From Eledone cirrhosa (taxonomy: Eukaryota), in assembly GCA_964016885.1 (NCBI GenBank), contig OZ024742.1:66092001-66156000 (forward strand): a stretch of DNA of 64,000 bases, written 5' to 3'. The notes beneath the pieces were generated by a model. It ran no database searches. It saw only the letters and a list, made by a program, of their open reading frames with translations, and was not told the DNA's origin. Made by a program: the position numbers and the translations under genes. Below, piece by piece: positions 2,776-61,545 of this stretch (position 1 is the first letter of the stretch; each line of letters opens with the position of its first letter).

Positions 2776-3627
2776 TAAAACAAAACAATCATTCGATTAT
2801 CTGTACGAACATGGATAGATACATACGTAGAGCAAATTTCTCGTAACTTAGTGGCCATATGTTTGATAATGGTTGAAGAAAATTATTGGAATTGATTTAA
2901 AAAAGTATAAAATAAAATAAGCTGGTTGCCGAAGTGATATGAGGGAGAAAATCTAAGAATATTTAAGCATCGATACATTTAATGGTATAATCAAGGAATG
3001 TTGAAATGTTTTACTATAAACTCCGTCACTTGTTACGGGTACTATGCTAATACAGACATAGTGAGATAGATAGATAGATAGATAGATAAATAAATATATA
3101 TATATATATAGAGAGAGAGAGGGGGTATATATATATACGTATATATTGTTATACTTGGGGAGGGTCATATTGTTGTAATACTATTGCCAGAATTAATAAC
3201 AGAACACACTTACAGTTTGGTTGTTTTCGCTACTGTATCTTTTATATCAGTTAATTCATTAGGTCCTCAATGTTTACCATTGACTGACCAACAGTAAAAA
3301 ATACAGATATAATATAGACACAAATACATATATATAGTCTAACAAAGTTCTTTCGTTGCACATCTGCAACATCTCAGTGGTGTTATTATATTTCCTCCTG
3401 TTCTATTTTATGTCTACGCCATCTTTATTTAATCTGTTTATTTATTTATTTATTTATTTATTTTTGTCTTCTCTGCGCATGCGTTTGCATGTGTGTGTAT
3501 AGTGTTTGATGTGTGTTCGCGTTTGGGTGATTGTGTTTTGGTTATTGTATTCTATCTTAGTTTACTAGTATGTGTTTATATGTTTGTTGTTATTGTGCTT
3601 GTGTATATATTTATTTATTTATTTATA

Positions 3628-5930
3628 TTTATCTTAGGTCAGTATTGTTTGTTTGGGTATTATTATTCCATTCATTTTTTCTGTTTAGCTTTGGCCTTCT
3701 AAGTTCTATTTCATTTGCTTCTCTGATTTGCCTATCTGCTGAGTCATTTCTATGTTTAGATATTTAAATTTCTATGTTGTCTATGTTACCGTCATGTTGT
3801 TGTCTGGCGTGTTCGCATAGTACTGAATCGTTTTTTCGTCCTTTTAGTTCCCTCTAGTGTTGGACTATCCTTTCTCCTATGCTTCGAGCAGTCTTGCCTA
3901 TGTATGTTGTTGTCATGTATCTCCAAGTACCCTCTGTACATCTTATGCTATATAGTACGTTTCTAGTTTTACAGTTTATCCTGGGGTTTCCTTTACATAT
4001 ATTACATTTCCTATTAGTACAGTGGGTTTTCTGAAAAGGGTATGTTTTGCTGATCAGGGATTTTATGGTTATTCCTGGCTTTTCTACCACCTTAATCTTT
4101 AAGTGGGTCTTTCTCAGGGCCTTTCTACACTGGTTAGTTAATTTCCCTCCAGGCGTAGCGTCTACGAACATGACACTCTGGTTGTCGTACCATGAGGTGG
4201 CTTTCCTTACCTTATGTTTAATCCTATCTAAGCTATTCCATGATTTGCTCCTGTATAATGGGGAAATTCCTTTCATGTCCTGTTCTATGAGGGTCTTATA
4301 CTTCTCCGTGGCTCCTTCGTATACTCTGACTCTGTCTCTTTGGTTGTAGCCAGAGAACTGCATGCGGTTGATGAAGTGTTGGATGTGTCTTTCCATTTCT
4401 GTTGGGTCGCACATGCGGGACACGTTCTTCATCACTCGTACCAAGTCTGCGATCAGAATATTAAACTTAGCATTACTGGACATTGCTGAGTTTTTGAGTA
4501 TCAGGTATTTGGGGGCCATGGGTTTAGCGTAGTGTGAGTGGAGAATTTTGGCCCTCTCGTCTATAGTGATAATCCAGAGTTCCGTGTCTAATACAGGTAG
4601 TGTACTGTTAGGGTGTTTGGAAGGGTAGTCGATAGTTACAGTTATACTCTGGTGTATGGAATTGGCTATCTGCTGGGTGCTTTCCATTGTGCTACATTCT
4701 AAATCATACTTGTTAGTACTCTCTTGTTGGGGTGTCCTTATTACTATATTAATGTCGTCTATGCAACGAGAGTACATGATGAGGTCTATGGAGCTCTCAT
4801 CATGGAGATCTTTGAGTCTCCTTCCCCACCATACCATAAAAAGTTTGGCAATGTCACCAGCTATGTTGACGCCAATGGCTGCTCCCTCATTTTGGGTGTA
4901 GATCTTCTCGTTGAATTTGAATATGTGACCCTTTAGAGTAGCTTTAATACTAGACCCTATTGCATGTGTGACCATTGTTTTTTTTTTGGGGGGGGGGGGG
5001 TCGGTATGGCTTTGGTCCACCCAATCCATCTTCTCATGGGAGTCTTTTTTGCTATTGAGGTTACGGTGGGGGTCTACCACTTCTGGGTCTACTGGGGCAG
5101 GAACGGCTAAGGTCATGGCTGTCTAGGTAGTCAGTGTCATAGGTAAAACTATGTAGGAGGCCCAGTTCGTCTGTGTCGACGTCGCAGAACTCCACCTCAC
5201 TCTCACTGATCATCTCCACACATTTTTCCATACTGCCTATTATGCACTTAGATAGGTTTTTGTTTTTGTTGCATTCATTGATTCTGCTGAGGAGGTCCTC
5301 TGTACTGTCACATACATCTGGGGACATCTTGATTATGGGGCGTATAACCATTGGAAACTAGTAGGAGATCCTCTAGTTGCTAGCGATATTGGCTTCGCAT
5401 GTTGGTGGTCTTGTTGTCGGGTCGTCGACTGTTTTATGGTCTTTGCGGAGCCCATAGAAGGGTGGTATGTCATTGTTAGACGCCTGGAAGTTATTGGCAG
5501 TGCGTCTGCTTGGCTTTAAGATGTCGGTCCACATCATCATGTGAGCGTTAATGATCTTCTCTCTACCCTCATGTATTTGCTGTTTAATTTCGCTCTCATG
5601 TTGGTGATGTGGGGTTGCATAGCCTTGATGTAGTTCGGCATGCTGTCTATTGACATCCTACCAGACTTATCCGAGAGTAGACATACTACCCCCACCATCC
5701 CTTGTGCGCTGCTTGAGGATAACTAAGCCTTCTACAGGTTTCCTTCCAAGTTGTTGGACCTCTGGTCTGCTTTGTCTCTTAGTATATCGGTCTACTATTT
5801 GTTTAATCTTATTTCTAGCTATGGTGAACTGTGCCTCTGTCTCGTCATCTATTTGTTGTGGTATACATACTCTTTTATTAAAGGATAACCTCGTAAGATA
5901 AATGTTACCCATCTGATATAGGCGAGACAC
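3628..5930 (-). pseudogene. PLE RT-GIY-YIG ORF with frameshifts and stops
   Basis: ORFs 5667-5930, 5061-5351 and 3854-5116: FKFNEKIYTQNEGAAIG, YSRCIDDI, LPVLDTEL, CTNRKCNIC, NVLYSIRC...YIGKTARSIGERIVQH; the frame continues past the TAG at 3854 (EHARQQH...RQIREA..I...PKLNRKNEW). Confidence 0.9.
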
Positions 5931-6414
5931 ATCGTAACATAGGTGAAAGGAGAGACCAACACTGGGAGGGGGGGGGGGGTACTAAAAGGACTATACGAAC
6001 ACGCCAGACAACAACATGACGGTAACATAGACAACATAGAAATAATATCTAAACATAGAAATGACCCAGCAGATAGGCAAATCAGAGAGGCAAGTGAAAT
6101 AGAACTTAGAAGGCCAAAGCTAAACAGAAAAAATGAATGGAATAACAACACCCAAACAAACAATACTGACCTAAGATAAATATAAATAAATAAATAAATA
6201 TATACACAAGCACAATAACAACAAACATATAAATACACACTAGTAAACTAAGATAGAATACAATAACCAAAACACAGTCACCCAAACGCGAACGCACACC
6301 AAACACTATACACACACACGCAAACGCATGCGCAGAGAAGAAGACAAAATAAATAAATAAATAAACAGATTAAATAAAGATGGCGTAGACATACAATACA
6401 ACAGGAGGAAACAT

Positions 6415-6465
6415 AATAGCACCCCTGACGATGTTGCAGATGTGCAACGAAAGAACTTTGTTAGA
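6415..6465 (+). ncRNA. Hammerhead ribozyme-like motif in the PLE pseudo-LTR
   Basis: CTGACGA-T-GTTGCA-GATG-TGCAAC-GAAA-GAACTT-TGTTA; stem I imperfect; the mirror copy near 3335-3385 lacks one core base. Confidence 0.65.
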
Positions 6466-6704
6466 CTATATATATGTGTTTGTGTCTATATTATATTTGT
6501 ATTTTTGACCGTTGGTCAGTCAATGGTAAACATTGAGGACCAAATGAATTAACTGATATAAAAGACACAGAATTGAAAACCAACCAAACAGTGAGTGTAT
6601 TCTGTTATTAATTCTGGCAATATTACTACAACAATATGACCCTCCCCAAGTATAACAATATTTGTTTCGACACATGATTTCATATTAAAAATCTCGCAAA
6701 ACGA

Positions 6705-7447
<743 letters not shown>

Positions 7448-8547: not shown

Positions 8548-8579
<32 letters not shown>

Positions 8580-8583
<4 letters not shown>

Positions 8584-8722
8584 AACGAGTAGGACCCCGA
8601 CGGCTGAGCTCGAGCTCAGCCGTCGGGGTCCTACTCGTTCCTATTACCCAATCTACTACCCTAAGTATTGAGTACTTTGGTGCGTTATGGTCCACCTGGT
8701 TCCTTACCACATTTCTTTCGTT
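8580..8722 (+). mobile_element. Fold-back mini-element, family B
   Basis: Perfect 64-bp palindrome 8580-8643 with no spacer, then a ~80-nt tail into (TA)n; homologue at 14968-15175. Confidence 0.8.
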
Positions 8723-12347: not shown

Positions 12348-13265
12348 AGAGAGAGAGAGAAGTATGTATGCATAAAAACTGAATGCTGTTGAAAGATCAG
12401 AAGCGGTTTAACAGATACGGTCTTTAGCCAAGCATCACTTTGAAACGCCGGTGTTGTTAGCCAATCATGTCAGATGACCAACACGAGATAATTATAAGAA
12501 TGCATTTACATGAAGACACGTGAGCCTTCAGTCCTTTATGGCCAATGGTATGCGCATCCAGTTTAGACGATTACACAAAGGTGCAAATGCTGTTGACGGT
12601 GTCCTTAGCCAAATACCGTAACAAAGCAAAACGTAAATCAAAATGTGTCTAGTTAATTGAGGCTAATGGCCTGTAATACGTTGTTGTTCTCGAAGTCCAG
12701 TTGACAATTACCAAACATGCCTGAAATAATATAGCATAATGCTCATACAGAGTTCATCTGCTACATCCTCCTACACATCTAACTACACATACTACACATC
12801 TAACTGCACATACGTATATATATCCAGGGAGTGTAACGCGGAGTGTAACGCGGAGTTACTGTAGGTTCACTCGGGTGAGCACTCGATGTTTAGGTTCACT
12901 TCTGTATCGAGGTATAGAGCTAGACAGAGTGTAGTATAATAAAATAACACAAGGACGAGTGGTTACTCCTTCATTACGTTTATTGTTTGGTGACGCGCCT
13001 TTCGCCACAGATCAACTCAAGGTTCGATCTGTATCGATCTAGCCCGACTCGGCAATCCGCGGATCGTATGACCCTTTAGTGGTAATGAAAAAATGATTAT
13101 ACATGTACGAGAAAGTCTGATATTTCTTAATATATATATATATATTTATTAAAATATCAGATTAAAGTTTAAGCAAAGAATCGCTGCTTTCACCCTTAAC
13201 GGGGTCTTCTGAAACTATTTATCTTTATCGAGCCCTCTTTGGATTTTAGTCTTCAAATTTATTAT

Positions 13266-13337
<72 letters not shown>

Positions 13338-14653: not shown

Positions 14654-14656
<3 letters not shown>

Positions 14657-14825
14657 GGATTCAATCGGGGGTAACCGCAATACGTGGCAGAGTATAAATA
14701 TTTAATTAACAAATATAGAAATGATTTCTACAGGACTGGAACTGTTTCATACGAAGGAAATCATCAGGGCTCTCCTGATGATTTCGGATAAAAGAGTTCT
14801 AGTCCTGTACAAGCCATTTCTATAT
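14654..14825. mobile_element. Fold-back hammerhead mini-element, family A
   Basis: Two head-to-head CTGATGATTTC cores (minus-strand copy with GAAACAG; plus-strand copy degenerate); tail homologous to 6858-6924. Confidence 0.75.
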
Positions 14826-14858
<33 letters not shown>

Positions 14859-14967: not shown

Positions 14968-14971
<4 letters not shown>

Positions 14972-15173
14972 AACCAGTAAGACCCCGACAGCTGAGCTCA
15001 AACTGTTTAGACGGCTAATTCTGGACTGTATATATATGTCCAGAATTAGCCGTCGAAACGGCTTGAGCTCAGCTGTCGGTGTCTTACTGGTTCCTATTAC
15101 CCACTCTACTACCTCAAGTATTGAGTACTTTGGTGCGTTATGGTCCACCTGGTTCCTTACCACATTTCCTTCG

Positions 15174-15175
<2 letters not shown>
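14968..15175 (+). mobile_element. Fold-back mini-element, family B
   Basis: Arms 14968-15026 / 15038-15097 with GAAACGGCTTGAGCTCAGCTGTC; tail nearly identical to 8644-8722. Confidence 0.8.
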
Positions 15176-16436: not shown

Positions 16437-16489
<53 letters not shown>

Positions 16490-16490
<1 letters not shown>

Positions 16491-16750
16491 TATATTAACA
16501 AATGGAAACTATATTTATAAAACCATATTTATTTCATTATACATATTTCAAGGGCCACCTAGACAAACTATGGTGCGCTCTCATCAGATAAAATATAATA
16601 TAGCTTAGTTTTATAAATAAATATTAACATACCCTGAAAAAATGCAACCATTCTGGTTGGAATCTCCTGGATTAATTGTTGAGTGCTTTATATGAGTTAT
16701 AAAAATATTTTGGTTGTTGTATCCCAACAAATTAAATATACCCTCTACAT
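16490..16750. mobile_element. Fold-back hammerhead mini-element, family C
   Basis: Minus-strand TTTTAT-CTGATGA-GAGCGCACC..GGTGGCCCTT-GAAA-TATGTATA-ATGAAA; plus-strand tail TGTTGAGTGC...TAAATATACCCTCTAC. Confidence 0.75.
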
Positions 16751-16936: not shown

Positions 16937-17205
16937 GATCTCAAATCTCACCGGGGGTAGAATTGCCTTCCATCCTTATGGGGTCGATAAAATAAAGCCC
17001 CAGTCACGTACATAGATCGATTTGATTGACTTCCCACCCCCTCTAAATTGCTGGACTTATGCCTAAATCAGAAACCATTATTATTGTTAATAATTAATTG
17101 TTTCTACTTTTGGCACAAGGCCAGCAATTAACCAGTACATTACTGGTACTTTATTTTATTGATCCCGTAAGGATGAAAGGCAAAGTTAACCTTGGCGGTA
17201 TTTAA
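16937..17205. mobile_element. Two tail-to-tail partial Deu/Nin-like SINE copies
   Basis: CCTTCCATCCTTATGGGGTCGATAAAATAAAG on the plus strand, then its reverse complement at 17100-17205. Confidence 0.7.
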
Positions 17206-17831
17206 TAATAAATAATGAGTCTTCTTACTCTGCCCCCCCCCCCCCCCCCTTTGTATCAGAGGGTCATCAGAAATTCTTTAACTCAACTTCGGTATTGAGT
17301 ACTCATTTCTATCAGACGTCAGCTACATACGTATATATATATATATATATATATGTGTATATTTATATTTACATTTATACTCATTTTTATACATATGTAT
17401 ATATATATATATATATATATGCGTGTGTGTGTGTGTGTATGTGAGTGTGTCTGCGTGCCTGTGTGTGTGTGTATGTATGTATGTATGTATGTGTGTATTT
17501 AAATATATGTTTAGACACTCATACAAACCCGCACACTCACAGATACACACACACACAACACACACAAGTATATGTTTTGTTTTGAAACCTATGGATTGGA
17601 CAAATACAGATCAATGAATAAGTACTAGAGTTTAAAAGAATAAATGTTCAGGTTGGTTGGTATATTCGAGCAATACCGTGAATTCGATGCTACAGCATGG
17701 CCGCGCGCTTTTGATTAAAACCAGTAAAAGAATATATATATAAAGATATATATGCATACATGTGTATATATCCAGTCGAATGGTTCAACACATATTCAAT
17801 GTGCGTTTGTGCATTTGTGTTTGTGTGTGTG

Positions 17832-22005: not shown

Positions 22006-22380
22006 CCTGTACATAGTTATATGTGTGTATGCAATTGTGTTTATAAGTGTGTATGTGTAGTTTAACTTAATGTTATGCTTGAACCACCAGATATCTGATC
22101 AAAACCCCTCCAGCCATGAACATCACGATTTATTGTTTTAGAAACACTTTAGTAGGATTGGTAATTTTGAGAGGTCGTGCAACCACGTAAAGTGTTTGCG
22201 TAGAAGCACACTTACCTGGACGGTAAATAGTGTACAACTTAAACTCAAATATCGACTACGGAAGGAATATTGATAGAAAGATACATATGTATACACAATC
22301 GGACACACATTCACACAAGCACTGACACATACAGACACTGACACGCACACGTGCACACACACACATACATATATTTATAT

Positions 22381-22800
22381 ATGCAAAGGTTATATTTAAT
22401 TTAAATATTTTTATAACTGATATAAAGCACTCAACAGTTTAGTAGAGTAAATATACAATATATTAATAAATGGAAACTATATTTATAAAACCATATTTAT
22501 TTTATTATACATATTTCAAGGGGAACCAAGGCAAATTATGGTGCGCTTTCATCAGATAAAATACAGATTTGTTTTATAAATAAATATTGACATACCCGGA
22601 AAAAAAGACAACCCTAACTGTTGGAGCTCCAACTGTTAAGGTTGTCTTTTTTTCCGGGTATGTCAATATTTATTTATAAAACAAATCTGTATTTTATCTG
22701 ATGAAAGCGCACCATAATTTGCCTTGGTTGCCTTTGAATTATGTATAATAAAATAAATATGGTTTTATCAATATAGTTTCCATTTATTAATATATTGTAT
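22381..22800. mobile_element. Fold-back hammerhead mini-element, family C
   Basis: ~170-bp arms centred on GGAGCTCC (~22627), a hammerhead in each arm, and a long tail 22381-22455. Confidence 0.85.
22497..22565 (-). ncRNA. Minimal type-I hammerhead ribozyme
   Basis: TATTTTAT-CTGATGA-AAGCGCACC..GGTTCCCCTT-GAAA-TATGTATA-ATAAAATA; stem I is a perfect 8 bp. Confidence 0.8.
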
Positions 22801-29055: not shown

Positions 29056-29088
<33 letters not shown>

Positions 29089-29097
29089 CATATATAT

Positions 29098-29725
29098 TTC
29101 GTTTCTGAATTTGTTTAGCAAGATTCTTTATCTGAAATCGTGTGTTGAAACCGATATTGTTATACTTTGGGAGGGTCATGTTGCCAATAAGAAACACACG
29201 CACCAGTTGCTTTCACTTCAATTTAATTTAATATATATTTATAAATTTACAAATTTATAAATTTCTGGTTGGTTGGTTGGTTCCACAACCAGATAGTTGT
29301 TTATATATATATAGTCATAGTTCTTTCGTCACACACTCTGTGACCTCTTCAGTGACTGGGGATTTCTTTCTTCGTTTCTGTGCCTTTCCTTTCTTCTATC
29401 CTACGCCATTTTGTTTCTGTGCCTTTTGTTTCTGTGCCTTTCCTTTCTTCTATCCTACGCCATTACAAAATGGCGTAGGATAGAAGAAAGGAAAGGCACA
29501 GAAACGAAGAAAGAAATCCCCAGTCACTGAAGAGGTCACAGAGTGTGTGACGAAAGAACTATGACTATATATATATAAACAACTATCTGGTTGTGGAACC
29601 AACCAACCAACCAGAAATTTATAAATTTGTAAATTTATAAATATATATTAAATTAAATTGAAGTGAAAGCAACTGGTGCGTGTGTTTCTTATTGGCAACA
29701 TGACCCTCCCAAAGTATAACAATAT
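29098..29725. mobile_element. Non-autonomous PLE fold-back (pseudo-LTR only)
   Basis: 261-bp arms 29154-29414 / 29465-29725 that look identical; terminus TGACCCTCCCAAAGTATAACAATAT and tail shared with the PLE at 3143-6704. Confidence 0.88.
29522..29566 (+). ncRNA. Minimal type-I hammerhead ribozyme (mirror copy on minus strand ~29313-29357)
   Basis: AGTCA-CTGAAGA-G-GTCACA-GAGTG-TGTGAC-GAAA-GAACTA-TGACT; predicted CUA cleavage after 29561. Confidence 0.82.
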
Positions 29726-29759
29726 ACATATATATATAAATATATACATATATATATAA

Positions 29760-30615
29760 ATATATCAACTAGAAATTGATTGACATATATATATATTTGA
29801 AATAAACGCATGAAACAATCACAGGGGATAATTTGTAAAGTGTGTAATCACATGTAGATAACTAATTAAAGTTTAACTAGAGCTTCAAATATTACCTTTT
29901 AAAAATGATTAATCCTCCTTGTATAATATATATTTCATTAAAGAAATATATTTCACCAATAATCCGTAAAGTCACAGTAGTCAAATGTTGGATCTTCAGC
30001 AAGGGGGAAGATTTAACTATCTGTGTTTACACATCAAATGCAAATCTGTGAGTGACCTGTCGCACGTGTTGCAATTCTAAAACTACTAACAACATGCTAG
30101 CGTACTCCCATTGGCGTGAATAGGGTGATCGACAGCTATAAATAGCAGCCGAGTCCTTTCAACTGATTTAGCTCTACAATTAAGGAGCCGTTCATATATC
30201 CAAAATATATCCAAAATTAATTAAATTAAATTAAATTAAATTAAGGGAGTCATGTCCGAGACATTGCCAAGATCCAAGATTTGACTACTGTAACTTTACG
30301 GATTATTGGTGAAATATATTTCTTTAATGAAATATATACAAGGAGGATTAATCATTTTTAAAAGGTAATATTTGAAACTCTAGTTAAACTTTAATTAGTT
30401 ACCTACCTAGCTATGTGTGATTACACACTTTACAAATTATCCCCTGTGATTGTTTTATGTGTTTATTTTAAATATATATATACGTCAATCAATTTCTAGT
30501 TGATATAAAATGCTCGGATCTATTCATTGGAATCATTGTGCTTATTCTACGGTGGATATGGCGCATGTCTCGGACATGACTCCCTTAATTTAATTTAATT
30601 TAATTTAATTTATTT
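29760..30615. mobile_element. Interleaved fold-back element, family E
   Basis: Arms 29760-29996 / 30269-30506 and a second pair 30215-30264 / 30566-30615; minus-strand CCTTG-CTGAAGA...GAAATATATA..CAAGG. Confidence 0.7.
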
Positions 30616-32425: not shown

Positions 32426-32632
32426 TAATAATAATAGTAACAATAACATGAACAATAATGATAATACATAGGGAGGAGGAAAATAAAGGCCCGTGTTCCC
32501 CTTTGTTTTGACCTCTACATTCGGCCCTTGTGGCTAATAATAAAGAAATTCGGATCTAGCTGACGAAACGGCCGAAGCTCAGCCGTCGGTGTCCTGACTC
32601 TTTTCATATATATATATATATTTATATATATA

Positions 32633-32972
32633 TTTCAAAGAATAGAGGTGTAACACACGAGTTATGATATATTGGTAAAAGGAAAAGAAAATGCTGACAA
32701 ATTGTTCCCAGTGAAAAATAGTTTAATTAGGAATAAGTAAAAATTAGTAATAGTATTGGTTAGTATTCAGTTTTGGTTTTAAGTTTAGAGCAAACATCAC
32801 GGACGCTCTATCTCAAAATTATTTTTGAAAAGCATTAGAAATGCGCAACCGGTAAAACTTAAAACCAAAACTGAATACTAACCAATACTATTACTAATTT
32901 TTACTTATTCCTAATTAAACTATTTTTCACTGGGAACAATTTGTCAGCATTTTCTTTTCCTTTTACCAATAT
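32633..32972. mobile_element. Fold-back element, family F
   Basis: ~120-bp arms 32668-32787 / 32855-32972; spacer contains GAAATGCGCA; short unique extension on the left; in (TA)n. Confidence 0.72.
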
Positions 32973-41489: not shown

Positions 41490-41670
41490 TACGATATTAA
41501 TAAATGGAAACTATATTTATAAAACCATATTTATTTCATTATACATATTTCAGGGATACCAAATTAAAATATGGTATGCCTTCATCAGACAAAATACAAT
41601 ATATAAACAGTTTTATAAATAATTTTGACGTATCCTATTAAATGCAACCATTATTTTTGGAAGCTGTCTG
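41490..41670 (-). mobile_element. Family C single arm with hammerhead
   Basis: Homologous to 22460-22630; minus-strand CTGATGA-AGGCATACC..GGTATCCCT-GAAA-TATGTATA. Confidence 0.72.
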
Positions 41671-41971
41671 GAGAGTGAAATGTTTTTATTATTTTATTAG
41701 TTATAGTGTTAAGCACAATTAGAAAAAGACGGAGAGAAATAAAGAAAAAACAGAGAGAGAGAAGGAGAAAAAAGGATGCACATACTTTCCCCGAAATAAA
41801 ATTATCTAGAGACATAATTCAATTGTATGTAACGACCCAAACATGTGTACATAATTTAAATAATGCATATAAAATAGAATTTATTTTAATGCACTATATG
41901 AAGATTTATTTTGTATACAATTTATAGGGACACACTGTGTGTGTTTATATATATATATATATATACATATA

Positions 41972-43044: not shown

Positions 43045-46000
43045 TCCCTAAGATTCAGAACTCCAAACAGAACCAAAAGATAATACACAAGACTAACATA
43101 ATTCTCAAAAACATTATCATCACAAACAAACTAAACATTACTGATTTAAATCATCTCTATTATGCATCGGCTAAAGTCACCACTCACTTATGTGGAGTGA
43201 AAATGAAAGAACAAAGGAATTCCCACAAGAAATCTACTTGACAAGAGAACATCAATCGCCAAATAAACCTTCTCCGATCTGACATAGAAATTTTAACAAA
43301 CTACAAAGTAGGTGAACATGTTAAACAAACTAAACTTAGAAAAGTGAAAAGAAAATACAGTATAAAATCAACAAGTGACATAGACATGCTGATAGAAATA
43401 ATCAAGCAAAAAGTGTCGGCCAAAGCTGCTCGTATAAGGCGCTTTGAAAAACGATCTAGATTCTATAAGGACAATAATATGTTCAAAAACAACCAAAGAA
43501 ACTTCTACAGAAAAATTGGCAAGTCAGCAATAACTGCTAAATCAATACCACCCAAGGTGGTATTGATTTCTGGGAAAAGATCTGGGCGGAAGAAAAAGTT
43601 CATAACATACATGCCTCATGGACAGACAGACAAATGAAAGATACAGCTCACCTTTAGGAACAAATATGGGAAAATATAACAGTTGAACAGTTGCGTTTGG
43701 CTCTTAGAAAAACCATCAAATGGAAATCCCCAGGAAAAGAGAAAATACCAAATGTTTGGATAAATGCATTCACAGAGTCTCACAAAATGAAATAGTTAAG
43801 GAGCCAGAAAAGATACCATCATGGCTAGTTAACTGCATTATATTCCTGCTTCCGAAGAATGATGAGACTGTAGCGACCTACATTCCGCGGGCTCACACAC
43901 ATTCTCTGTGCGTGATTTGGCTCAGCTCAGCCAATCAGCGCCAGTAGAAGAGGATGTATCCCTATGCGTTCTGAGGGAGAAATAGCCCGCAAAGATTTGA
44001 GGACGCTATCACTTCCAGCTCGACCGTGCCCAGGTAAACACCACTTGTTCTTTTGCTCCGCCAGCACAAACAATATGTAACGACACAACAATTTTACTAC
44101 GGCATTGGCTAAACGCCTCAGCCAGTCGACCGTATTTTCTCTGTAATCTTAATTGATTTGTTTTATTTCTTTTGGTATGCCAGCTCAACCTCCGTTAATA
44201 AATATTGTAAAACCAAGCTAAAGTCGTTGTCGATATTCCTATCATATCTTTCTACCAAACATGGTTCCTCGTGGCGACATTACCAACTTCTAAAATATAC
44301 CTCAACCGAATTGATGACAACATCTTTACACCAAAAGACAAACAATCCCAAAAATTACAGACCGATAACTTGCTTGACAACAATGTATAAAATTTTAACA
44401 TCAGTCCTCACTGAATATATATATGACCACCTGATAACAAATGACCTATTTCCCAATGAGCAGAAAGGGTGTAAACGAGGCTCATATGGCTGTAAGGATC
44501 AGCTTTTGGTTAACAAAATGATATTGGAAGATTGTCATAATAGACACAAAAATCTATCAATTGCTTGGATAGATTATAAAAAAGCATTCGATAGTTTGCC
44601 ACACAGTTGGATTGAAAAATGTTGAGAGATTTTCAAAATATCTCCCGTTGTCAGGAAGTTCTTGTCATTCAGTGTGAAGACATGGAAAACGACACTCCTT
44701 TTGAATAGTGAAACAAAATCACTGGAAGCTGGAGAAGTTAATATTAATTGTGGAATTTTTCAGGGTGACTCTTTATCACCGCTTTTATTCTGCATCGCAC
44801 TTATACCATTAAGTAAAATGCTTAATGAAACAAAACATGGAAATAAAGTCTATGACAAAACCATTAATCACTTGTTCTACATGGATGACCTGAAACTATT
44901 TGCAAAAAATGATGAACAATTGCAAGGACTATTATACACTGTGGAGCAGTTCAGTGATGACGTTAAAATGGAGTTTGGACTAGATAAATGCGCCAAAGCA
45001 ACGTTCACCAGACGAAAGCTGCTGAAAAGTTCAGACATTAATCTTGATCGGGGGAATGTGATAAGCGAACTTGATCAAGAGGAAACTTACAAATATCTAG
45101 GTGTTTGTGAAGGAGACGGAATGAAGCACTCGACAATGAGGGAAAGGATAAGGAAGGAATGTTACCGCAGAGTAAGAGCAATCTTAAGAACGGAATTGAA
45201 TGCAAGGAATAGGATCGATGCCATAAACACGCTTTCCAAACCAGTAGTAACCTACAGTTACAATGTCAACTGGTCAAGCACAGAGATCCGTAGGCTCGAT
45301 ACAAAAATTCGAAAATTCTTAACCATGCACAGAATGCATCACCCTAAGGCAGATACAGATAGAATATATCTCCCTAGGAAAGAAGGAGGACATGGGTTAA
45401 TCCAGTTAGATATTGCGTTGAAAACTGCAACAATTGGATTATCTACATATCTAAGGGAATCACATGTTTAGATGATCAAACTCGTTTTGAATCACGAAAG
45501 CATCAAAAGATCATACTCCATTAGGAAAGATGCACAAAGATACAGTAATGGACTACAAATTTCAGAAGTCCCATTTACTGCTGAAATGGAAAACACAGAA
45601 AAAGCAAAGCAGGTAAAAGTAACTGCAAAGAAAGAACTGCTACAGAAACTGGCTAAGAAATGGCAAGAAAAGCCTCTGTATGGAAAATACCCAGAAAGAG
45701 CTCACAATCCTGATGTTGACAAAACTTTAACCCATCAGTGGTTGGCAACCTCTGGACTGAAATCGGAGACTGAAGGACTGATTATATCAGCACAAGATCA
45801 GTGTCTGCCAACAAAAAATTACCAAGCCAATATAATAAAAAATGGATGCAACCCATTATGCTGTGTATGTAAAAAACAACCAGAGACCATTGATCATATA
45901 ATTTCAATGTGCAGTCCTATAGCTTCAACCGAAAACCTAAACAGGCATGACAGAGCTGCACAATACATACATTGGATAATGTGTAAGCATTTTGACCTGC

Positions 46001-46566
46001 CCCATCAAAAGAATTGGTGGGAGCATCAACCACCTCCCATACTTGAAAAAGATCACAACTCAATCTTGTGGAACTTTAGCATCCAAACAGACCGAAAAAT
46101 AGATGCAAATAGACCTGATAATACTGAAGGACTTTAAAAAGAGGGTATGCCTGCTAATTGATATGTCCGTTCCAATAGACAAGAATGTATCTATAAAAAC
46201 ATTTGAAAAATTGAGCAAGTATAAGGACCTGGAGATAGAAATTGGAAAAATGCGGAAATTAACAACTAAAACAATACCAGTGGTTGTGGGCGCTCTAGGA
46301 ATGATACCTAAGGGGTCTAATGATTACTTACCGAAAATCCCAGGAAACTCGCGTATAGAGAAATACAAAAGATAGTAATAATGGGAACTGCCCATATACT
46401 AAGGAAGATTCTGTCAATATAAGTACATCACAAGTCTAAACACCTAAAGATGCATGTGTGTGTATGTATGTTCTTTCTTGAACATGGCGGACCTTGTTTT
46501 CTCTTGAGGTCACTGGTTGTGACTTGGTGATAACTCGTATGAACATAAAGAAAAATAAATGCAACT
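43044..46566 (+). mobile_element. R4/Dong-clade RLE non-LTR retrotransposon, 5'-truncated, decayed
   Basis: NYRPITCL, WIDYKKAFDS, GIFQGDSLSP, HLFYMDDLKL, CCVC..ETIDHIISMC, RHD, RPD, LIDMSVP, EKLSKY; several stops and frameshifts; (AAT)n on both sides. Confidence 0.93.
43869..44335 (+). mobile_element. 467-bp insertion, solo-LTR-like, inside the R4 RT
   Basis: Splits LLPKNDE|TNNPKNYRP; AGAC duplicated on both sides; starts TGTAG, contains AATAAA, and has TTTACA 5 bp before its end. Confidence 0.6.
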
Positions 46567-46677: not shown

Positions 46678-49110
46678 TAACAGCGCTGCGATCGAATGTG
46701 GCTTTTTAGCCCAGCCAATGATCTAAAATGTCTTGCACAGAGTTTGGCAACCAAAACATTCACTGGGAATAACCGGCTATGGTTGGAGTTCATGTACTTT
46801 TACATGCCGTTTGAGCCCTCCTGCTGATTTACATTCTCTACCACATGATTGGCAACCATAAGGAGTAGCATCTCCAACAGCAGCCTGGTAATCAACCACT
46901 GGTCTTACTTTATGACTGCGAAAATGACTTTCGAGTCCAGCTTTGCTTAGGCAGACTCTCGCACAGACGCTGCATGTCAGCGCCATAGGAGGACCCTCGC
47001 CGTCTGGAAATGCAACAGTAATACCATTCCTCACATCCCGCTTTACTTTCTCATATGTGATTCGAGATGCCTCAAAGGCAACTTTCCCCTCATATACAGT
47101 CTTTCTCCATTTATTACGATCAGCAGCAACATTTTCCCATGTATCAGCAGAGATGTTAGCCTGTTTCAAAGAGGTTTTCAAGGAATCCTTATACCTCTTT
47201 TTTTTGTTTATGTGGAGGTCGTTTTCCTTTAACTAACTTTCCATAAAAGAGTTGTTTTGGTATTCTAGAATCCTTCATCCTGGCAAGGTGACCACTCCAA
47301 CGGAGTCTCTGCTTAAGCACAAGAGTCTCTATACTGTCACACAGAGAGCTTTCCAAAACCTCGACATCACTGATGTGGTCCCTCCAGTGAACGCCATGGA
47401 TACGTCTGAGACACATCTGATGGAAACGCTCCAATTGCTTAAGGTTATGTCGATATGTGACCCAGATCTCGCAGGCATAAATAAGAGAAGAGAGCACACA
47501 TGCCTTGTACACCTTTACCTTTGTCTTCTTGCATATATCTCGCCGACCCCATGGAGCTGTCTAGCTGAGAAGATCACATCAGTAGTGCTACGTCCAACAC
47601 GAACACCAGATTGACTTTCAAGAAGAACACAATCCGCAATGTGAGTCAGCAGACGGTCCAGAAGCACCCTACATAAAGCATTCCCTACGACAGAAAGCAA
47701 TGATATACCTCTGTAGTTCCCACAATCATTCCTGTTACCCTTTCCCTTGTACAAGACTACCATTACTTCATCTCTGCAGTTCTCAGGTACGGATTCAATA
47801 TCCTGCCAAACAAAGAGTGAAGTTGTTGCAGAAGTTTCTCACCACCATATTGTAGGAGCTCTGCATGTATGCAATCCATACCTGGAGACCTTCCACTGTT
47901 CAGCTTCGAGATAGCTACTGCAACCTCCACAAGCGTCGGAGGCTGTGTGATAGCTACTTTCACAGGATTTTCTGGAATGAGATTGAGGAAATCTTCATTG
48001 ACGACAGACGGCTGATTCAAAGGTTCATGAAAGTGCTCTCGCCACCTTCGTAGAATTCCTTTTGAGCCACGAAGAAGTTATTTGCCATCCTTGCTGCGAA
48101 GCGGTGTCACCAGAGAAGAAGACGGTCCACAGAGACTGTACAACAACTTCATATTGGAATCTGACGCAGCCTGTATCTCATCAGCCTTCTCACTCCACCA
48201 CTGATCCTTCACCTGAGAAAGACTCCGCGTAACACGTGATTTCACATGCTTGAGTACCTTATGCAACATATTCTACTCCTGTTGTTTTGCCGTCAAGTAG
48301 CGTGACAGAGCATGCCTCCTATCAGACAACAAGTCTTCTATGTGTGAATCATTCTCAACCAGTGTTGATGTTTTCTCTGCACCAATCCCAGAACACGCCT
48401 GCCTACATCATAAACCGACTTTTTAAGGGTCGGCCAATCGTCACCAAGATCTGCAACCTGCATCTCTCCTTGCAATGTCCTCTTCACATTTTTATCCCTG
48501 AGATGCCATTCCTTAGATGCAGGATGCATCCATGTAGTGTTATATTTGTTCTTTTGTTGGAACATGGTGTTGGTAACACACATATCCAGCTCCTCACACA
48601 TCTGCAGCAGGAGCATACCATTGTTGTTACACTTTCCCACCCTATGCCATCCGATTACATTCCATGTGTTTAAATCCCTACCCACTCTAGCATTAAAGTC
48701 ACCAAGCATGATGACTTTGTCTGCCTGAGGGATATTTCTTAAAACACCTTTCAAGGCATGGTAAAAGGACACTTTTTCTTCATCGACAGAATTCATAGTT
48801 GGAGCATACACACTCACCAGGGTCGCATATCTTCCTTTGTCCAGCGTAATTCTCATGGACATAAGACGCTCACTAATCCCCAGCCTCTCTTCTGGTTCCT
48901 TCATCTCTTCCTTTCCAGAAGAATGTATATTCTCCACAAAATTCTGTAAGATAACCATCTCCAGCTAACCTCGTCTCAGATAAAGCTACGATGTCAAGAT
49001 CGTAACATCGAAGCTCCTTTGCAACAAGAGTGGTCCTTCGTTCAGGACGTTCAAAGGAATCCCTGTCAAGCAGCGTCCGTACGTTCCATCACCCAAGACT
49101 AAGTGCCTTG
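46678..49110 (-). mobile_element. RTE-clade LINE (APE-RT-zinc fingers), decayed, with an internal RT deletion
   Basis: WNVRTL..IVALSETR, VSVYAPT, MLGDFNARVG, KSPG-like RSPGMD, NYRGISLLS, STTDVIFSARQL joined directly to YKACVLSSLIYACE, RLRWSGHLARM, C2H2 fingers. Confidence 0.92.
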
Positions 49111-50049: not shown

Positions 50050-53000
50050 ATTCATTTTTGGGGCCCTTTCTGCCCGTGTGTTTGTTTGTTTATGTGTGTC
50101 CGTATACAGCGTGGTGATAATGCCACACAAGGGCCAAGTGGGATGGCGGATCCACAGATGGCTATGTAAACATACATTCGCCAATCCTCGATAAGAGTGT
50201 TTAAATATCGAACATAAACAGTTCGAATAACGGTGAAATGGAGACTAGAACGTCATGTGACAGACTCTCACCCAACAGGTGCCCCCTGGCTCAGCAGCAG
50301 GAACCTGACTGTCAACCAAATACTGCTGATGTTGGAGGAAGAAGAAGAAGGAAAGGGGCCAGAACCAACTGGACGAAAGAATTGAATAGAACTGTTATGC
50401 AATGCTACCTGAAAAGTAACCCCAAGGAGAGGGGCTACAGGAGACGGATGCATAACATCTGGAACGAGATTGGTTTATTTAAATTAGATGAACAAAAATT
50501 GGCCGGGCAGGCTCGGGTAATAAGAACTAATGGGTGGATAAGCGAGCTGGAACTGGAGGAACTGAGCAGAGAGAATGGCTTGGAGATGGCGGGTGTAGTA
50601 TGCCAGACAAGCGAGCCGGCGGGAAATGAAGGTGAGGAGGTCCTGAGAACGGAGGAACCACCCGAAGCAGACAATGATCTGAATACTGAGATAAATAATA
50701 CCTGGAACAGAGAGACGGCCACTGAGGAGATGAATGCTGACGGGCTAGGACGAGATTCGGTTGACATCCTAAATTTAGTGGTAGATGAGTTGAACAATGA
50801 TAGTGGGAGACCTATGAACCTAAGATTTGTAGACAGGAAAAAGTTAAAAGAAACAACAGCTAAGGTAAACAAAGTCATCCCATACCTTGAGGCGAGGAGT
50901 CTTCACCAGTGCAACAATATCCTCAAAGCAACAGCAAATACGGTGAGGAAACTACTTGGTATAAAAGCGAGAGGAAACAACAGACAAGAAAGAGCAGAGC
51001 CGTGGTGGAAGAAGCGACTGAGTGGGCAAATCGGGGAAATGAGAAATGACATAGGAAAGCTTGAGTCACTACTGAATGGGACACTAAAAAACATAGGCAC
51101 TAAAAATAGACTGGAAATAAAATACAAAACTAGGAGTAAAAAGCTAAATATTATCATAGAGGAATTGAAGCAACGCATTGTAGCAAAGAGTGCCAAAATC
51201 AGGCGATACGAGAACAGAGTCAGTCAGTATAAACAGAACCGCATGTTCGACAACAACCAGAAGATGCTGTTTGGACAGCTTGAGGGGAAAGAAAGAGGCA
51301 ACGACTTGATCCCTGGGGCGGAACAAGCTAAAACATTCTGGAGAGGAATATGGGAGCAGGATGTTAGACACAATGCCCAGGCAGGGTGGATTGAGACAGT
51401 ACAGAGGGAGATCGGTGAGCAGGCACAGCAACAGACTGATTTGGGTATCACAGTTGAAACTCTTAAGGGGCAAGCCAAAAAACTAACCAACTGGAAATCA
51501 CCAGGCCCAGATGGTGTGCAGGGGTATTGGATTAAACATTTAACATCCCTCCACCCGAAGCTGACGGCCATGTTCAATGACTGCTTGGTGTCGGGTGAGG
51601 TGCCAGAGTGGTTGACAAAAGGTACCACAGTTCTGATAATGAAAGACCGAATCAAGGGTAATGATGTTACCAACTATAGACCTATCACATGTCTGCCCGT
51701 AATGTGGAAACTGTTGACGAGCATTGTGTCTGAGGAAATCTGCCATCACCTCCACACAAACAACTTGTTGCCGGACGAACAGAAAGGATGCCGAAAGAAG
51801 TCACGTGGTACAAAGGACCAGTTGCTTATTGATAAGATGGTAATGGGGAATTGCAGGAGGAGACACACTGATCTTGCCATGGGATGGATAGACTACAGAA
51901 AGGCATTTGACATGGTGCCTCATTCCTGGATCACCAAAAGCCTGGAGATCTTCAGGGTGGCGGATAACATCAGACAGTTGCTGGGCAGGAGTATGGGGTC
52001 CTGGGAGACAGAGTTGACATCAACTGGAGTATCCTTGGGAAGCGTGAAGATCAAGAGAGGTATCTTCCAGGGAGATAGCCTGTCCTCTCTGTTGTTTGTC
52101 CTTGCCCTGATGCCCTTGACCATTATGCTGCGAAAAGTGAGAGCAGGATACAAGTTGGGAAGGGGAGAGCTTACCATCAATCACCTCCTCTTCATGGACG
52201 ATCTTAAGCTCTTCGGGAAAAGTGAGAAGGAGTTGGATGTGCTTGTTGACACTGTCCGTATTTTCAGCAGTGATATATGTATGCAGTTTGGTATTGGTAA
52301 ATGTGGAGTCATCGTGATGAGGAGGGGTAGGTTGAGCAGAAGTAACGGGGTCCAGATACCAACAGGTGAGATGATAAAGGAAATTGACTCTGAGGAAGGA
52401 TACAAGTATTTGGGCGTTCTGGAGGCTGATGGCATAAAGAACAAAAAAATGAAGGAATTGTTAAGAACTGAATACATTCGGAGAGTAAGGAGCGTATTGA
52501 AGTCACATCTGAACAGCAGAAATGCCATAAGCGCAGTAAATTCCCGAGCTGTGTCTATTATTAGGTAAAGTGCGGGAATTCTGAGATGGAATGTTGCTGA
52601 ACAAAAAGAAATGGATAGGAAGACTAGGAAGCTATTGACTATCGACAACATGTTCCACAAGAGGAGTGATGTCGATAGACTCTACCTAAGGAGATCTGAG
52701 GGTGGAAGAGGTCTTATCAGCATAGAGGACTGTGTTCAGATGGAGAAAAACAACCTATACAAATACGTGACCTATAGTAAGGAGCCAATGCTCAGAGCTG
52801 TACTGAAGGAGGGGACAGTAGGCCAGGGGATACCCAAGGAGGAAATAACATCAAGGAGGAAGAGCAGCCTTAAGGGAAAATCCCTTCATAGTACCTTCTT
52901 TGAGAAAACTGAATTTAGAGATCCACAGACATGGAACTGGTTGAGAAGAGGAGACCTCAAAAAGGCTACAGAAGGAATGCTAATGGCTGCGCAGGAGCAG

Positions 53001-53705
53001 GCCCTCAAAACGAAGTGGTTGAAGCACCATATCTACAAGGAGGAGGCTAGCCCACTGTGCAGGATCTGTGGAGAGAGAGAGGAGACTGTGGCTCACATTG
53101 TGTCCGAGTGTAAACACCTAGCCCAGACCCACTATAAGGGCTGGAGACACGATGTGATGGGCAGGGTGATCCACTGGCACCTGTGCAAAGTAAACAATCT
53201 ACCACATTCTGAGAAATGGTATGAGCATAGGCCAGAGGCGGTGATGGAGAACAGTCAGGTGAAGGTGCTGTGGGATTTTAGGATACAGACGGACAAAAAA
53301 CTGGAACACAATAGACCTGACCTGGTGGTTGTGGACAAAGAAAAAAGATCGTGCCTGATTGTGGATGTGGCCTGCCCGTTCGACACGAGAGTGCAAGAGA
53401 AGGAGAGGGAGAAAATTAACCGATACCAGGACCTAAAGTGGGAGGTGAAAAGGATTTGGAACTGCCATGAAGTCAAAGTGATCCCGATTGTCATAGGCGC
53501 ACTGGGGACTATCTCCAAAGGTTTCCAGGGATGGTTAAAGAAAATCGGCCCCTCCACGCTTTTTGGAACGCTTCAAAAGGCATGCTTGCTTGGAACGGCA
53601 AGAACCCTCCGATACGTCCTGAATATCTGAGGCTGCATGTAGTGGCTTGATATTCAATCCAACGGACTTTCCAGTTAACCAACATCAATGACTGAGATTC
53701 AAGGA
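50050..53705 (+). mobile_element. Near full-length R4/Dong-clade RLE non-LTR retrotransposon
   Basis: Single long frame plus a short 3' UTR ending at (TAA)n; 5' boundary approximate. Confidence 0.93.
50238..53630 (+). pseudogene. RT + CCHC + PD-D..K endonuclease ORF (~1130 codons) with one in-frame stop
   Basis: ORFs 50238-52568 and 52611-53630 share a frame; TAA at 52566-52568 sits where Tyr is expected (IIR*SAGIL); LFMDD, CRIC..H..SEC, RHD, RPD..DVACP, EKINRY. Confidence 0.92.
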
Positions 53706-54892: not shown

Positions 54893-54894
<2 letters not shown>

Positions 54895-55280
54895 AAGATA
54901 TTAATAAGTGGAAACTATATTTATAAAACCATATTTATTCTATTATATATATTTCAAGAGCGACCAAGCCAACTTGGTGCGCTTTCATCAGATAAAATAC
55001 AAAATTTGTTTTATAAATAACGACATACCCATGGAAATCAACCTTATCGGTCGGAAGTTCGATGGATATTTATAAAACAAATTTTGTATTTTATCTGATG
55101 AAAGCCCACTAAGTTGGCTCGGTCGCCCTTGAAATATATATAATAAAATAAATATGGTTTTATAAATATATTTTCCATTTATTAATATCTTTGAATAGTT
55201 ACTCCAGTTACTGTTGAGTGCTCTATATCAGTTATAAACATTTATCTTTGTCGGAATTCCAACAAATTAAATATAACTTC

Positions 55281-55285
<5 letters not shown>
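54893..55285. mobile_element. Fold-back hammerhead mini-element, family C
   Basis: Arms ~54895-55015 / 55068-55192 with a hammerhead in each; long tail to 55285; in (TA)n. Confidence 0.85.
55087..55150 (+). ncRNA. Minimal type-I hammerhead ribozyme
   Basis: TATTTTAT-CTGATGA-stem II-GAAA-TATATATA-ATAAAATA; predicted cleavage after 55142. Confidence 0.8.
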
Positions 55286-55307
<22 letters not shown>

Positions 55308-55316
<9 letters not shown>

Positions 55317-55692
55317 ATTATAAAGCTAAGCGTCGTGTGTATGTATTATGTATGTATTCTACACACCTCCCTATAGCTTTACACTCTCCGTCGCTTCCCC
55401 CTCTGTATAATTTAGCTGTTTTACTCTCTCTGTCGCTCTTCACTCTCTATATGACAACACTGTTTTAGTTTCCGTATCTCCCTTCAATCATCTGTCGTCG
55501 CTCTTATAAGTAACACACACACACAACCCCCCCCCCCCCCCCCCCCCCACACACAAATACGCATACTTTCACACCTGATTTCGCCAATTGCCGGATAACA
55601 TCAAAACAAAACACACAGACACACACATGCACACATACACAAACACATAGACACACATATCTATACTTATAAATATGACGGTCGTATATATA

Positions 55693-55723
<31 letters not shown>

Positions 55724-55982
55724 TGTATGTATGTATGTATGTGAAGCTTTTATAGTGAGCAAAGGCACTGCACAAAGCCAGGGTAGGGGTTCTCCTACAT
55801 GGATATAAAGTAGTGGCCGTACTCGAAAACGAGGTGGCAGCCACCATGTATGTATGTATGTATGTATGTATGTATGTCTCTATAATTTAACAGCTTTACT
55901 CTCTCTGTCGCTCTTACTCTCTATATGACAACACTGTTTTAGTTTCCGTATCTACCTTCAATATACACACACACACACACAC

Positions 55983-56039
<57 letters not shown>

Positions 56040-57522: not shown

Positions 57523-57699
57523 GCCCACTAAGTTGGCTCGGTCGCCCTTGAAATATATATAATAAAATAAATATGGTTTTATAAATATATTTTCCATTTA
57601 TTAATATCTTTGAATAGTTACTCCAGTAACTGTTGAGTGCTCTATATCAGTTATAAACATTTATCTTTGTCGGAATTCCAACAAATTAAATATAACTTC

Positions 57700-57735
<36 letters not shown>

Positions 57736-58124
57736 ATTATAAAGCTAAGCGTCGTGTGTATGTATTATGTATGTATTCTACACACCTCCCTATAGCTTTA
57801 CACTCTCCGTCGCTTCCCCTCTGTATAATTTAACTGTTTTACTCTCTCTGTCGCTCTTCACTCTCTATATGACAACACTGTTTTAGTTTCCGTATCTCCC
57901 TTCAATCATCTGTCGTCGCTCTTATAAGTAACACACACACACAAACACACACACAACCCCCCCCCCCCCCACACACACACGCACACACACAAATACGCAT
58001 ACTTTCACACCTGATTTCGCCAATTGCCGGATAACATCAAAACAAAACACACAGACACACACATGCACACATACACAAACACATAGACACACATATCTAT
58101 ACTTATAAATATGACGGTCGTATA

Positions 58125-58160
<36 letters not shown>

Positions 58161-58435
58161 TGTATGTATGTATGTATGTATGTATGTATGTATGTGAAGC
58201 TTTTATAGTGAGCAAAGGCACTGCACAAAGCCAGGGTAGGGGTTCTCCTACATGGATATAAAGTAGTGGCCGTACTCGAAAACGAGTTGGCAGCCACCAT
58301 GTATGTATGTATGTATGTATGTATGTATGTCTCTATAATTTAACAGCTTTACTCTCTCTGTCGCTCTTACTCTCTATATGACAACACTGTTTTAGTTTCC
58401 GTATCTACCTTCAATATACACACACACACACACAC

Positions 58436-58490
<55 letters not shown>

Positions 58491-61239: not shown

Positions 61240-61243
<4 letters not shown>

Positions 61244-61545
61244 GGAGGTGAGTTTTATTGTAGAACAATAAAGCAATGCAAATATCGGATAAGTAGCACT
61301 CAACAGTTTATTGGACTGGAGTATATATAAGAGAAAATTAAAAGATGGTTAACAAAGTTCCATGTATTTTATTATGCGCATTTCAAAAACAAATATTATC
61401 CTGGGACGATATTTGCGTTCTCATCATGTCTCCCTATTTTATCTGATGAGAACGTAAATATCGTCCCAGGATGATATTTGTTTTTGAAATGCGCATAATA
61501 AAATACATGGAACTTTTTTAACCATCTTTTAATTTCTTCTTATTT
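61240..61545. mobile_element. Fold-back hammerhead mini-element, family D (related to C)
   Basis: Arms ~61325-61426 / 61445-61545; long tail 61240-61325; in (TA)n. Confidence 0.83.
61435..61506 (+). ncRNA. Type-I hammerhead ribozyme with palindromic stem III
   Basis: TATTTTAT-CTGATGA-GAACGTAAATATCGTCC-CA-GGATGATATTTGTTTTT-GAAA-TGCGCATA-ATAAAATA. Confidence 0.85.

Follow-up and report, generated by a model that had tools for sequence, protein, structure and literature searches.

Near position 8,664 of the 64,000-nucleotide stretch of Eledone cirrhosa DNA analysed here (the window), a fold-back PLE end carries a one-sided tail with an 11-letter motif that recurs in the tails of other PLE families. 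The question raised by this locus is what the motif does there. The original prediction was that it is a cis signal, bound by the PLE RT or GIY-YIG protein, which positions internal priming or a second nick and so produces the one-sided tail. Our analysis retains the PLE setting and the tie to the end of the short arm, but the unit is almost certainly a base-paired, bulged hairpin and not a linear 11-mer.

Distribution of the motif in PLE tails

The consensus STRTTGAGTRC had eight exact copies in the window compared with a mean of 0.23 in shuffled sequence (largest count, 2; 0 of 100 shuffles reached 8), which bears out the proposal that the motif is common to several families and shows it to be enriched over background. 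Matches with one mismatch numbered 12 against 7.7 expected, and 9 of 100 shuffles reached 12; since this excess is not clear, the motif sites at 16676 and 12879 (the latter from family G, with a TC variant of the motif) rest on context. All eight exact copies lay in one-sided PLE tails, 29 to 62 nt upstream of a (TA)-rich end (about 45 to 52 nt for the copy at 22427), so that the 3′ end of the tail stands at no fixed distance past the motif. The elements that carry them are short and (TA)n ended, with hammerhead pieces and mostly with an inverted arm. Their sense orientation was read from the full hammerhead cores on the motif strand in families C and D and from the core in the long arm of family A′. 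An exact copy at 57630 was absent from the original list. Both this copy and its downstream flank are repeats of those at 55211, and an N gap lies next to it; it is therefore not an independent insertion, which leaves seven insertions in families A, B, C, D, and F.

The families were also expected to be otherwise dissimilar, and they are. Local alignment of one representative of each of six families (45 nt upstream and the downstream tail) showed 0 of 15 pairs to be alike upstream and 1 of 15 downstream (C and D, uncorrected P value = 0.018). The flanks were thus unalignable in 29 of 30 family comparisons, and the tails could not be aligned end to end.

The bulged hairpin in the window

We are highly confident that the 11-letter motif is the 3′ strand of a bulged hairpin that is conserved across families and shared with Hydra elements; the reading of a linear motif only was dropped, given the pairing with an upstream strand. 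In the window, the hairpin has the form ACTC-N3-loop-N3′-TY-GAGT-RC, with N3 complementary to the first three motif bases, and starts 10 to 41 nt upstream of the motif. Generalised, it reads R-Y-U-C, three variable pairs, a loop of 3 to 34 nt, a 2-nt 3′ bulge, G-A-G-Y, and then R-C.

The family B fold-back end at 8582..8721 (+) runs from (TA)n through a perfect 33-bp palindrome (8579-8644, target TA bases counted) and the tail into (TA)n again. Its motif copy occupies 8665..8675 (+), one base to the right of the predicted start, and comprises the 3′ strand of the upper stem, the TT bulge, the 3′ strand of the lower stem, and AC. The 5′ strand of this hairpin (8650..8673, +) is AATC and not ACTC, which breaks one lower pair. 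The second family B fold-back end (14970..15174, +), with the 3′ half of a hammerhead, has an intact hairpin (15103-15126, motif 15118-15128), as have the fold-back ends of family A (6858..7025, −; hairpin 6901-6919, motif 6899-6909) and family D (61241..61544, −; hairpin 61298-61322, motif 61296-61306). The tail-bearing end of family G (12822..13129, −) has a decayed hammerhead-like stretch and an intact hairpin at 12881-12930 with a 34-nt loop and a TC bulge. Family C has a fold-back end at 54893..55283 (+) with a full hammerhead core (55095-55134) and an intact hairpin (55201-55219, motif 55211-55221), its duplicate by the assembly gap at 57523..57702 (+; hairpin 57620-57638, start approximate), and a fold-back end at 22375..22800 (−; full hammerhead core 22514-22555; hairpin 22429-22448, ends approximate) in which two of three upper pairs form by a G.U-tolerant count. 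At 16488..16748 (+), a family C antisense arm is joined to the tail inside the 5′ strand of the hairpin, and the motif (16676-16686) has one mismatch. Family F is represented by an antisense hammerhead-like arm with a tail (17195..17331, +; hairpin 17281-17300 with 6 of 7 pairs; motif 17292-17302, start approximate). The family A′ fold-back end (14654..14836, −) has kept the 5′ strand and the upper stem of the hairpin, and the lower 3′ strand is gone through an apparent deletion.

Several further observations concern these insertions and their surroundings. Two instances of the family C copy, each with the downstream flank, lie around the N gap (54893-55988 and 57523-58441) and reflect either a local duplication or an assembly artefact, and the 16676 junction resembles CTCC microhomology. 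Tail-less PLE ends with the short end only were seen at 13146-13268, 32560-32610, and 41492-41690; one represents an additional minus-strand hammerhead family, and the others are a B-like and a C-type piece. A long fold-back between (TA)n runs, in which no hammerhead was seen, lies at 32634-32968. Interrupted LINE-type RT and zf-RVT frames with a weak endonuclease match (44113-46137, 48338-48964, and 50205-53630) are unrelated, and the interspersed repeats of the window resemble what we take to be an octopus SINE.

The three upper pairs of the hairpin vary between families (A, TGC/GTA; B, TAC/GTA; C and D, CAG/CTG; F, AAC/GTA; G, TGT/ACA), and so do the loops (3, 8, 3, 9, 4, and 34 nt in A, B, C, D, F, and G, respectively), yet 17 of 18 upper-stem cells are paired when one copy is taken from each of the six families. 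When the 3′ triplets were permuted among families, 12 of 720 arrangements reached 17 paired cells (P value = 0.017; 6 of 120 with C and D merged), and a per-column shuffle of the upper stem gave a P value of 0.0004; both nulls ignore kinship, and the sample is six families, small and partly related. The lower stem never varies within the window, so its pairing rests on the published Hydra sequences.

Both strands of the window hold 46 TYGAGT sites, and the full hairpin was closed at six of them, all in PLE tails. Nulls obtained by shuffling the upstream sequence were 0.074 for A, 0.096 for B, 0.0006 for C, 0.006 for D, and 0.019 for G. With the hairpin descriptor in its wider form, which was set after the published Hydra sequences had been viewed, seven window sites were found compared with a shuffle mean of 1.3 (maximum of 5 in 100 shuffles); six of these correspond to the tail hairpins, and the remaining one arises from another way of pairing the 16676 copy. 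In shuffled window DNA, the descriptor matched by chance at about 1e-5 per base. MAFFT left the ten hairpins out of register, and pairs were counted by script with one copy per family; RNAalifold, given the four copies in register of ten, returned the same hairpin with two two-sided changes. In an Rfam scan of the window, the best 150 of 214 matches were all to miRNA models below the gathering score, on microsatellites or palindromes.

The isolated hairpin is weak (−0.4 to −3.1 kcal/mol), and whole tails folded no better than shuffles (z of −1.3 to −0.06). It forms part of the minimum-energy fold in C (55211), D, and G and does so partly in C (22427) and F, but not in A, B, or the 16676 copy. 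Pairing probabilities of the lower stem were 0.5 to 0.99 in C, D, F, and G, 0.24 to 0.53 in A, and 0.01 to 0.06 in B. If it forms at all in A and B, the hairpin likely needs protein to do so.

Hydra-clade sequences and assignment of the stubs

The Hydra clade of C-terminal EN+ PLEs (Craig et al. 2021, PMC8557442) has (TA)n targets and a canonical hammerhead near the 3′ end, as do the window elements. Read by eye, the six Hydra-clade consensus sequences in File S7 of that paper show the same bulged hairpin at the termini of five of the six, in three perfect and in two imperfect, and the main text is silent on it. The 3′ ends of Hydra-2_Amil (coral) and Hydra-2_Ajap (sea cucumber) consist of a hammerhead, an AT-rich tract, and GCTC-N3-loop-N3′-bulge-GAGC-AC, with all seven pairs formed and with the upper stems TAC/GTA and TGC/GCA, respectively. 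Hydra-1_Ajap has a perfect hairpin from base 3 and a second copy further on, both before the ORF, and its 3′ end is an AT-rich short end. In Hydra-1_Crog (copepod) and Hydra-1_Amil, 6 of 7 pairs form, and some letters deviate from the consensus. The hairpin is absent from Hydra-1_Obim, which is listed without a pLTR. The window stubs differ from these elements in having no ORF attached and in carrying ACTC/GAGT where the perfect published copies have GCTC/GAGC, which, by eye only, is a two-sided change in the lower stem. Six 8-mer variants occurred 26 times in the supplement of PMC8557442, and the hairpin was closed at 4 of 4 occurrences in the Hydra file and at 1 of 22 elsewhere (Naiad, Chlamys); this count was made by eye, and line breaks hide some occurrences. 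Stem III of the hammerhead in Hydra-2_Amil, Hydra-1_Ajap, and Hydra-2_Ajap is itself ACTC/GAGT (PMC8557442, File S2), and its identity with the lower stem of the window may be a coincidence or may permit alternative pairing.

One could suppose that the families descend from a common ancestor and that the hairpin is a neutral relic, the stretch that happened to drift least. The families probably share ancestry, and the C and D tails are weakly alike. However, in 29 of the 30 comparisons the flanks have diverged past alignment while the stem is still paired through two-sided changes, and the same form recurs in the coral, sea cucumber, and copepod elements of PMC8557442; we regard a neutral relic as very improbable. 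A coding constraint, with the tail as an ORF start as in Poseidon and Penelope and the motif encoding I/V-E-Y/C, seems to us extremely unlikely. Downstream of the motif, families B, C, D, and F have no stop in the I/V-E-Y/C frame, in which the variable bulge base is at a third codon position, but another frame is just as often open (in A, B, D, F, and G), and shuffles are open in 19 to 100% of cases. Moreover, C and D have stops a short way upstream that no start codon separates from the motif, the hairpins of Hydra-1_Ajap precede the ORF in the published consensus, and the pairing would be left unexplained. A splice acceptor was rejected as well, with an AG after a pyrimidine run only in C and D.

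Judged from sequence features, the stubs of families A to D, F, and G likely belong to the Hydra clade. An inverted, 5′-truncated copy with a one-sided extension is present in the seven two-armed copies. A canonical sense hammerhead near the 3′ end is found as full cores with stem I in C and D and in partial or decayed form in A, B, F, and G, and the terminal bulged hairpin, a marker proposed here, is present in the window tails. The tails are longer than the 30 to 40 bp described for EN+ PLE ends, at 62 to 83 nt from the hairpin base to the 3′ end (6 copies) plus 6 to 8 nt before it. Insertion into (TA)n was also observed; this trait is shared with Neptune and Naiad and is not diagnostic. A motif scan of the window for a Hydra-type ORF (RWK, DKT, CxCX5C linker, and GIY-YIG without CCHH) found none, and the stubs carry no coding sequence.

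Assignment to the Naiads, suggested by one hit in the supplement of PMC8557442, was dropped. Naiads lack the canonical hammerhead, and C and D have full cores. The hit, which is also the one of 22 occurrences outside the Hydra file that closes the hairpin, lies within the 3′ UTR of Naiad_Mmer at a long distance from the end, and with a descriptor rate of about 1e-5 per base a file of that size could yield it by chance. By eye, the family A arm at 6940-6965 agrees at about 20 of 24 bases with a SECIS-like stretch in the 3′ UTR of the clam element Naiad_Mmer, about 60 nt before its hairpin-like match. In the window, the CX2-5CxxC linker, a Neptune/Nematis trait, is confined to the family E element, and the tails of that family are without the hairpin. 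Families A to D, F, and G may still belong to Neptune or Nematis, since the published ends compared were those of other clades.

Family E served as a control of another PLE type. Its element at 3150..6705 (−) is near complete but decayed, with an RT/GIY-YIG remnant (3854-5122) and a CX4CX2C linker between inverted ends of about 650 bp. It was missed by Pfam, and a protein atlas returned RT/GIY-YIG/HTH_animal look-alikes. The tail, on the inverted copy (6661-6705, + strand), is without the hairpin. The same is true of the tail of a family E-type fold-back end at 29075..29770 (−), whose two arms of about 270 bp each match almost perfectly and each contain a CTGAAGA-type hammerhead (cores 29324-29352 and 29527-29555), with a small internal duplication at the center.

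Outside the window, a scan of viral contigs for the motif with (TA)n gave 11 loci, none with the hairpin or a PLE context. A metagenome scan for ACTC, the motif, and (TA)n gave at least 111 loci, none resembling a PLE end, and served as a null; of the 111 loci listed, three upper pairs could form at 3, a loose hammerhead-like string was present at 2, and at 1 a hammerhead-like match with stem I lay in another part of the locus. One metagenome tandem repeat (L027:1300-1700, minus strand) has (TA)n runs and a C-type 11-mer after ACTC, with 2 of 3 upper pairs and no hammerhead.

The short-arm end and proposed internal priming

The end of the short arm tracks the base of the hairpin better than it tracks the motif (6 of 7 two-armed copies). 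From the last G/C of the short arm, the distance to the hairpin base was 6, 8, 8, 7, 7, and 8 nt in six two-armed copies (SD, 0.8), and to the motif it was 16, 23, 23, 18, 17, and 24 nt in the same copies (SD, 3.5). The A′ copy (14654) is an outlier in which the short arm ends 18 to 24 nt before the hairpin, and it was left out of these spreads. The predicted stop of the short arm 13 to 20 nt before the motif was recovered by local alignment in 5 of 7 two-armed copies (20 and 20 nt in B, 13 and 13 nt in C, and 15 nt in D) but failed in A′ (28 to 29 nt); in family A, the distance was 9 nt by gapped alignment and 16 nt in ungapped register. The gap between the short-arm end and the hairpin is AT rich and has 2 to 6 bases in common with the (TA)n target.

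We compared the family C sense arm with four public runs and obtained 5896 contigs from X1, 27400 reads from X8, 48 contigs from X5, and 8 contigs from X7; X8 is a reduced-representation run in which a few loci may dominate. Depth in X1 and X5 dropped sharply at 55184-55200, where loose ends continue into (TA)n, and across the public runs family C short ends followed by (TA)n lay behind 55180-55190. The commonest short end in X8 (6159 reads) lies about 10 nt before the hairpin, as does that of the window copy at 41492. Within the family C hairpin, the variants listed are at 55207, at 55208 and 55209 in the loop, and at 55215, which is the second base of the bulge; none is listed in ACTC or GAGT. 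At 55215, T>C was carried by 4208 of 8336 first-mate-plus reads in X8 and by 24 contigs in X1; at 55207, in the upper stem, G>A was common in X8 (4456 of 8057).

We lean, on balance, toward a reading in which the hairpin folds in the element RNA and is bound by the PLE protein, which would thereby direct internal priming to the adjacent upstream AU-rich stretch. The hammerhead, the AU tract, the hairpin, and the tail would follow one another in that order on a read-through or circular RNA; since Hydra-1_Ajap starts with the hairpin and its 3′ end stops at an AT-rich short end, the tail would be the start of the next tandem unit. The GIY-YIG domain would nick (TA)n on both strands. One 3′-OH would anneal to the AU tract immediately 5′ of the bound hairpin, by 2 to 6 nt of TA microhomology, and yield the short arm, and the other would prime 29 to 62 nt past the motif and give the long arm with its tail; the two truncated cDNAs would then join head to head as a fold-back stub. 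The invariant G-A-G-Y-R-C face and the bulge may be read by the protein, with the upper stem needing only to pair, and the near-fixed upstream distance across unlike flanks would follow if the protein grips the hairpin and feeds the AU tract to the nicked (TA)n primer. In vitro, a Poseidon protein cleaves AT-rich DNA on both strands and extends each; its RT initiates at two internal sites in the RNA, one at either end of the genomic tail, and requires RNA there, and hammerhead cleavage is dispensable (PMC11167929). In the stubs at 16488-16748 and 17195-17331, the long arm is almost the tail alone, beginning inside the hairpin or about 10 nt before it, and the second cDNA may tend to stop at the hairpin.

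The hairpin might instead be a 5′-leader element of the next tandem unit, acting in transcript start, stability, translation, packaging, or hammerhead folding, with priming nearby incidental to the AU-rich end of the unit. This would suit the two copies at the 5′ start of Hydra-1_Ajap, upstream of its ORF, the imperfect hairpin of Hydra-1_Amil, which follows the hammerhead almost directly, and the report that the tail is the start of the next unit in other PLEs (PMC3846280); TA microhomology alone could choose the priming site. However, the spacing of 6 to 8 nt is kept in A to D despite unlike upstream 45-nt stretches, and other AT-rich stretches lie further up the C and D arms. We consider the leader explanation unlikely.

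Whether the signal is read as RNA or as DNA bears on the second part of the original proposal. A single-stranded cDNA hairpin or a duplex site could be recognized by the GIY-YIG domain, with a second nick trimming one arm. The tail has been ascribed to EN-mediated resolution (PMC8557442), and the tail of the D. virilis element is reported to be needed for EN recognition of plasmids (PMC11167929). The strand test was weak, with a slight preference for sense in A, C, and D, for antisense in B, and none in F and G. Nevertheless, the short arms share TA microhomology with the target at their ends, as expected of priming, and the opposite strand would have A.C in place of the G.U pairs of A, C, D, and Hydra-1_Amil. 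A loop that varies from 3 to 34 nt while the stem is kept fits a folded strand better than a duplex site of fixed spacing. Both tail ends of the Poseidon element PAc matched RT start sites in vitro (PMC11167929). We therefore judge a DNA signal to be distinctly unlikely and return to the RNA hairpin as the preferred reading.

PAc, from Anolis carolinensis (Frangieh et al. 2024, PMC11167929), resembles the window stubs in that its tail lies between two internal RT starts, downstream of the hammerhead, and in that AT-rich targets are cut and extended on both strands. It differs in that the start lies inside an AC-rich stem-loop within the ORF and the tail is 30 to 40 nt long, whereas in the window an AT-rich tract on the 5′ side of the hairpin is where the short arms stop, and 62 to 83 nt separate the hairpin base from the 3′ end. 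By eye, the printed 361-nt template of PAc has no GAGY-RC stem. With family E and PAc both lacking the hairpin, a universal PLE tail signal was ruled out. The inverted pLTRs with one-sided tails of EN+ PLEs (PMC3846280, PMC8557442) are likewise 5′-truncated fold-back ends whose extension is the start of the next unit; those tails are 30 to 40 bp, and the available portions of both papers describe no conserved structure in them. The bulged hairpin was not found described in the PLE literature as far as its accessible text extends, the word “hairpin” being absent from that of PMC8557442, PMC3846280, and PMC7229834, nor in that of PMC11167929, PMC4209133, and bioRxiv 10.64898/2026.07.22.740005. 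Fold-back stubs with tails are known by-products, and what is new is probably the conserved structure.

Telomerase RNA, which serves the sister RT group, has template-flanking elements bound by TERT, in which a small protein-bound stem stands beside an internal template; its boundary element halts copying from a position 5′ of the template. The window hairpin is unlike the boundary element in lying 3′ of the proposed start, and the comparison is an analogy only. We entertain, at a little under even confidence, the joint proposition that Hydra-clade PLEs of at least three animal phyla, together with this host, share a structured RNA handle for a telomerase-related RT and that the RT bound there starts copying a fixed few bases upstream.

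The finding bears on how PLE proteins choose their RNA and their internal starts; the one in vitro study confined the RNA element to about 150 nt of a single Poseidon RNA, with no closer definition in the available text (PMC11167929). A covarying hairpin of 20 to 50 nt at a near-fixed place beside the short-arm end is a direct target for mutation, and it offers a marker for sorting ORF-less fold-back stubs by clade. It is also relevant to the way in which the enzymes that are sisters to telomerase make use of an internal template. If the proposed role is true, the hairpin would be the first cross-phylum cis element for internal initiation by PLEs, an analogue of the stems that flank the telomerase RNA template, and would provide a portable tag that sets where a PLE protein starts to copy.
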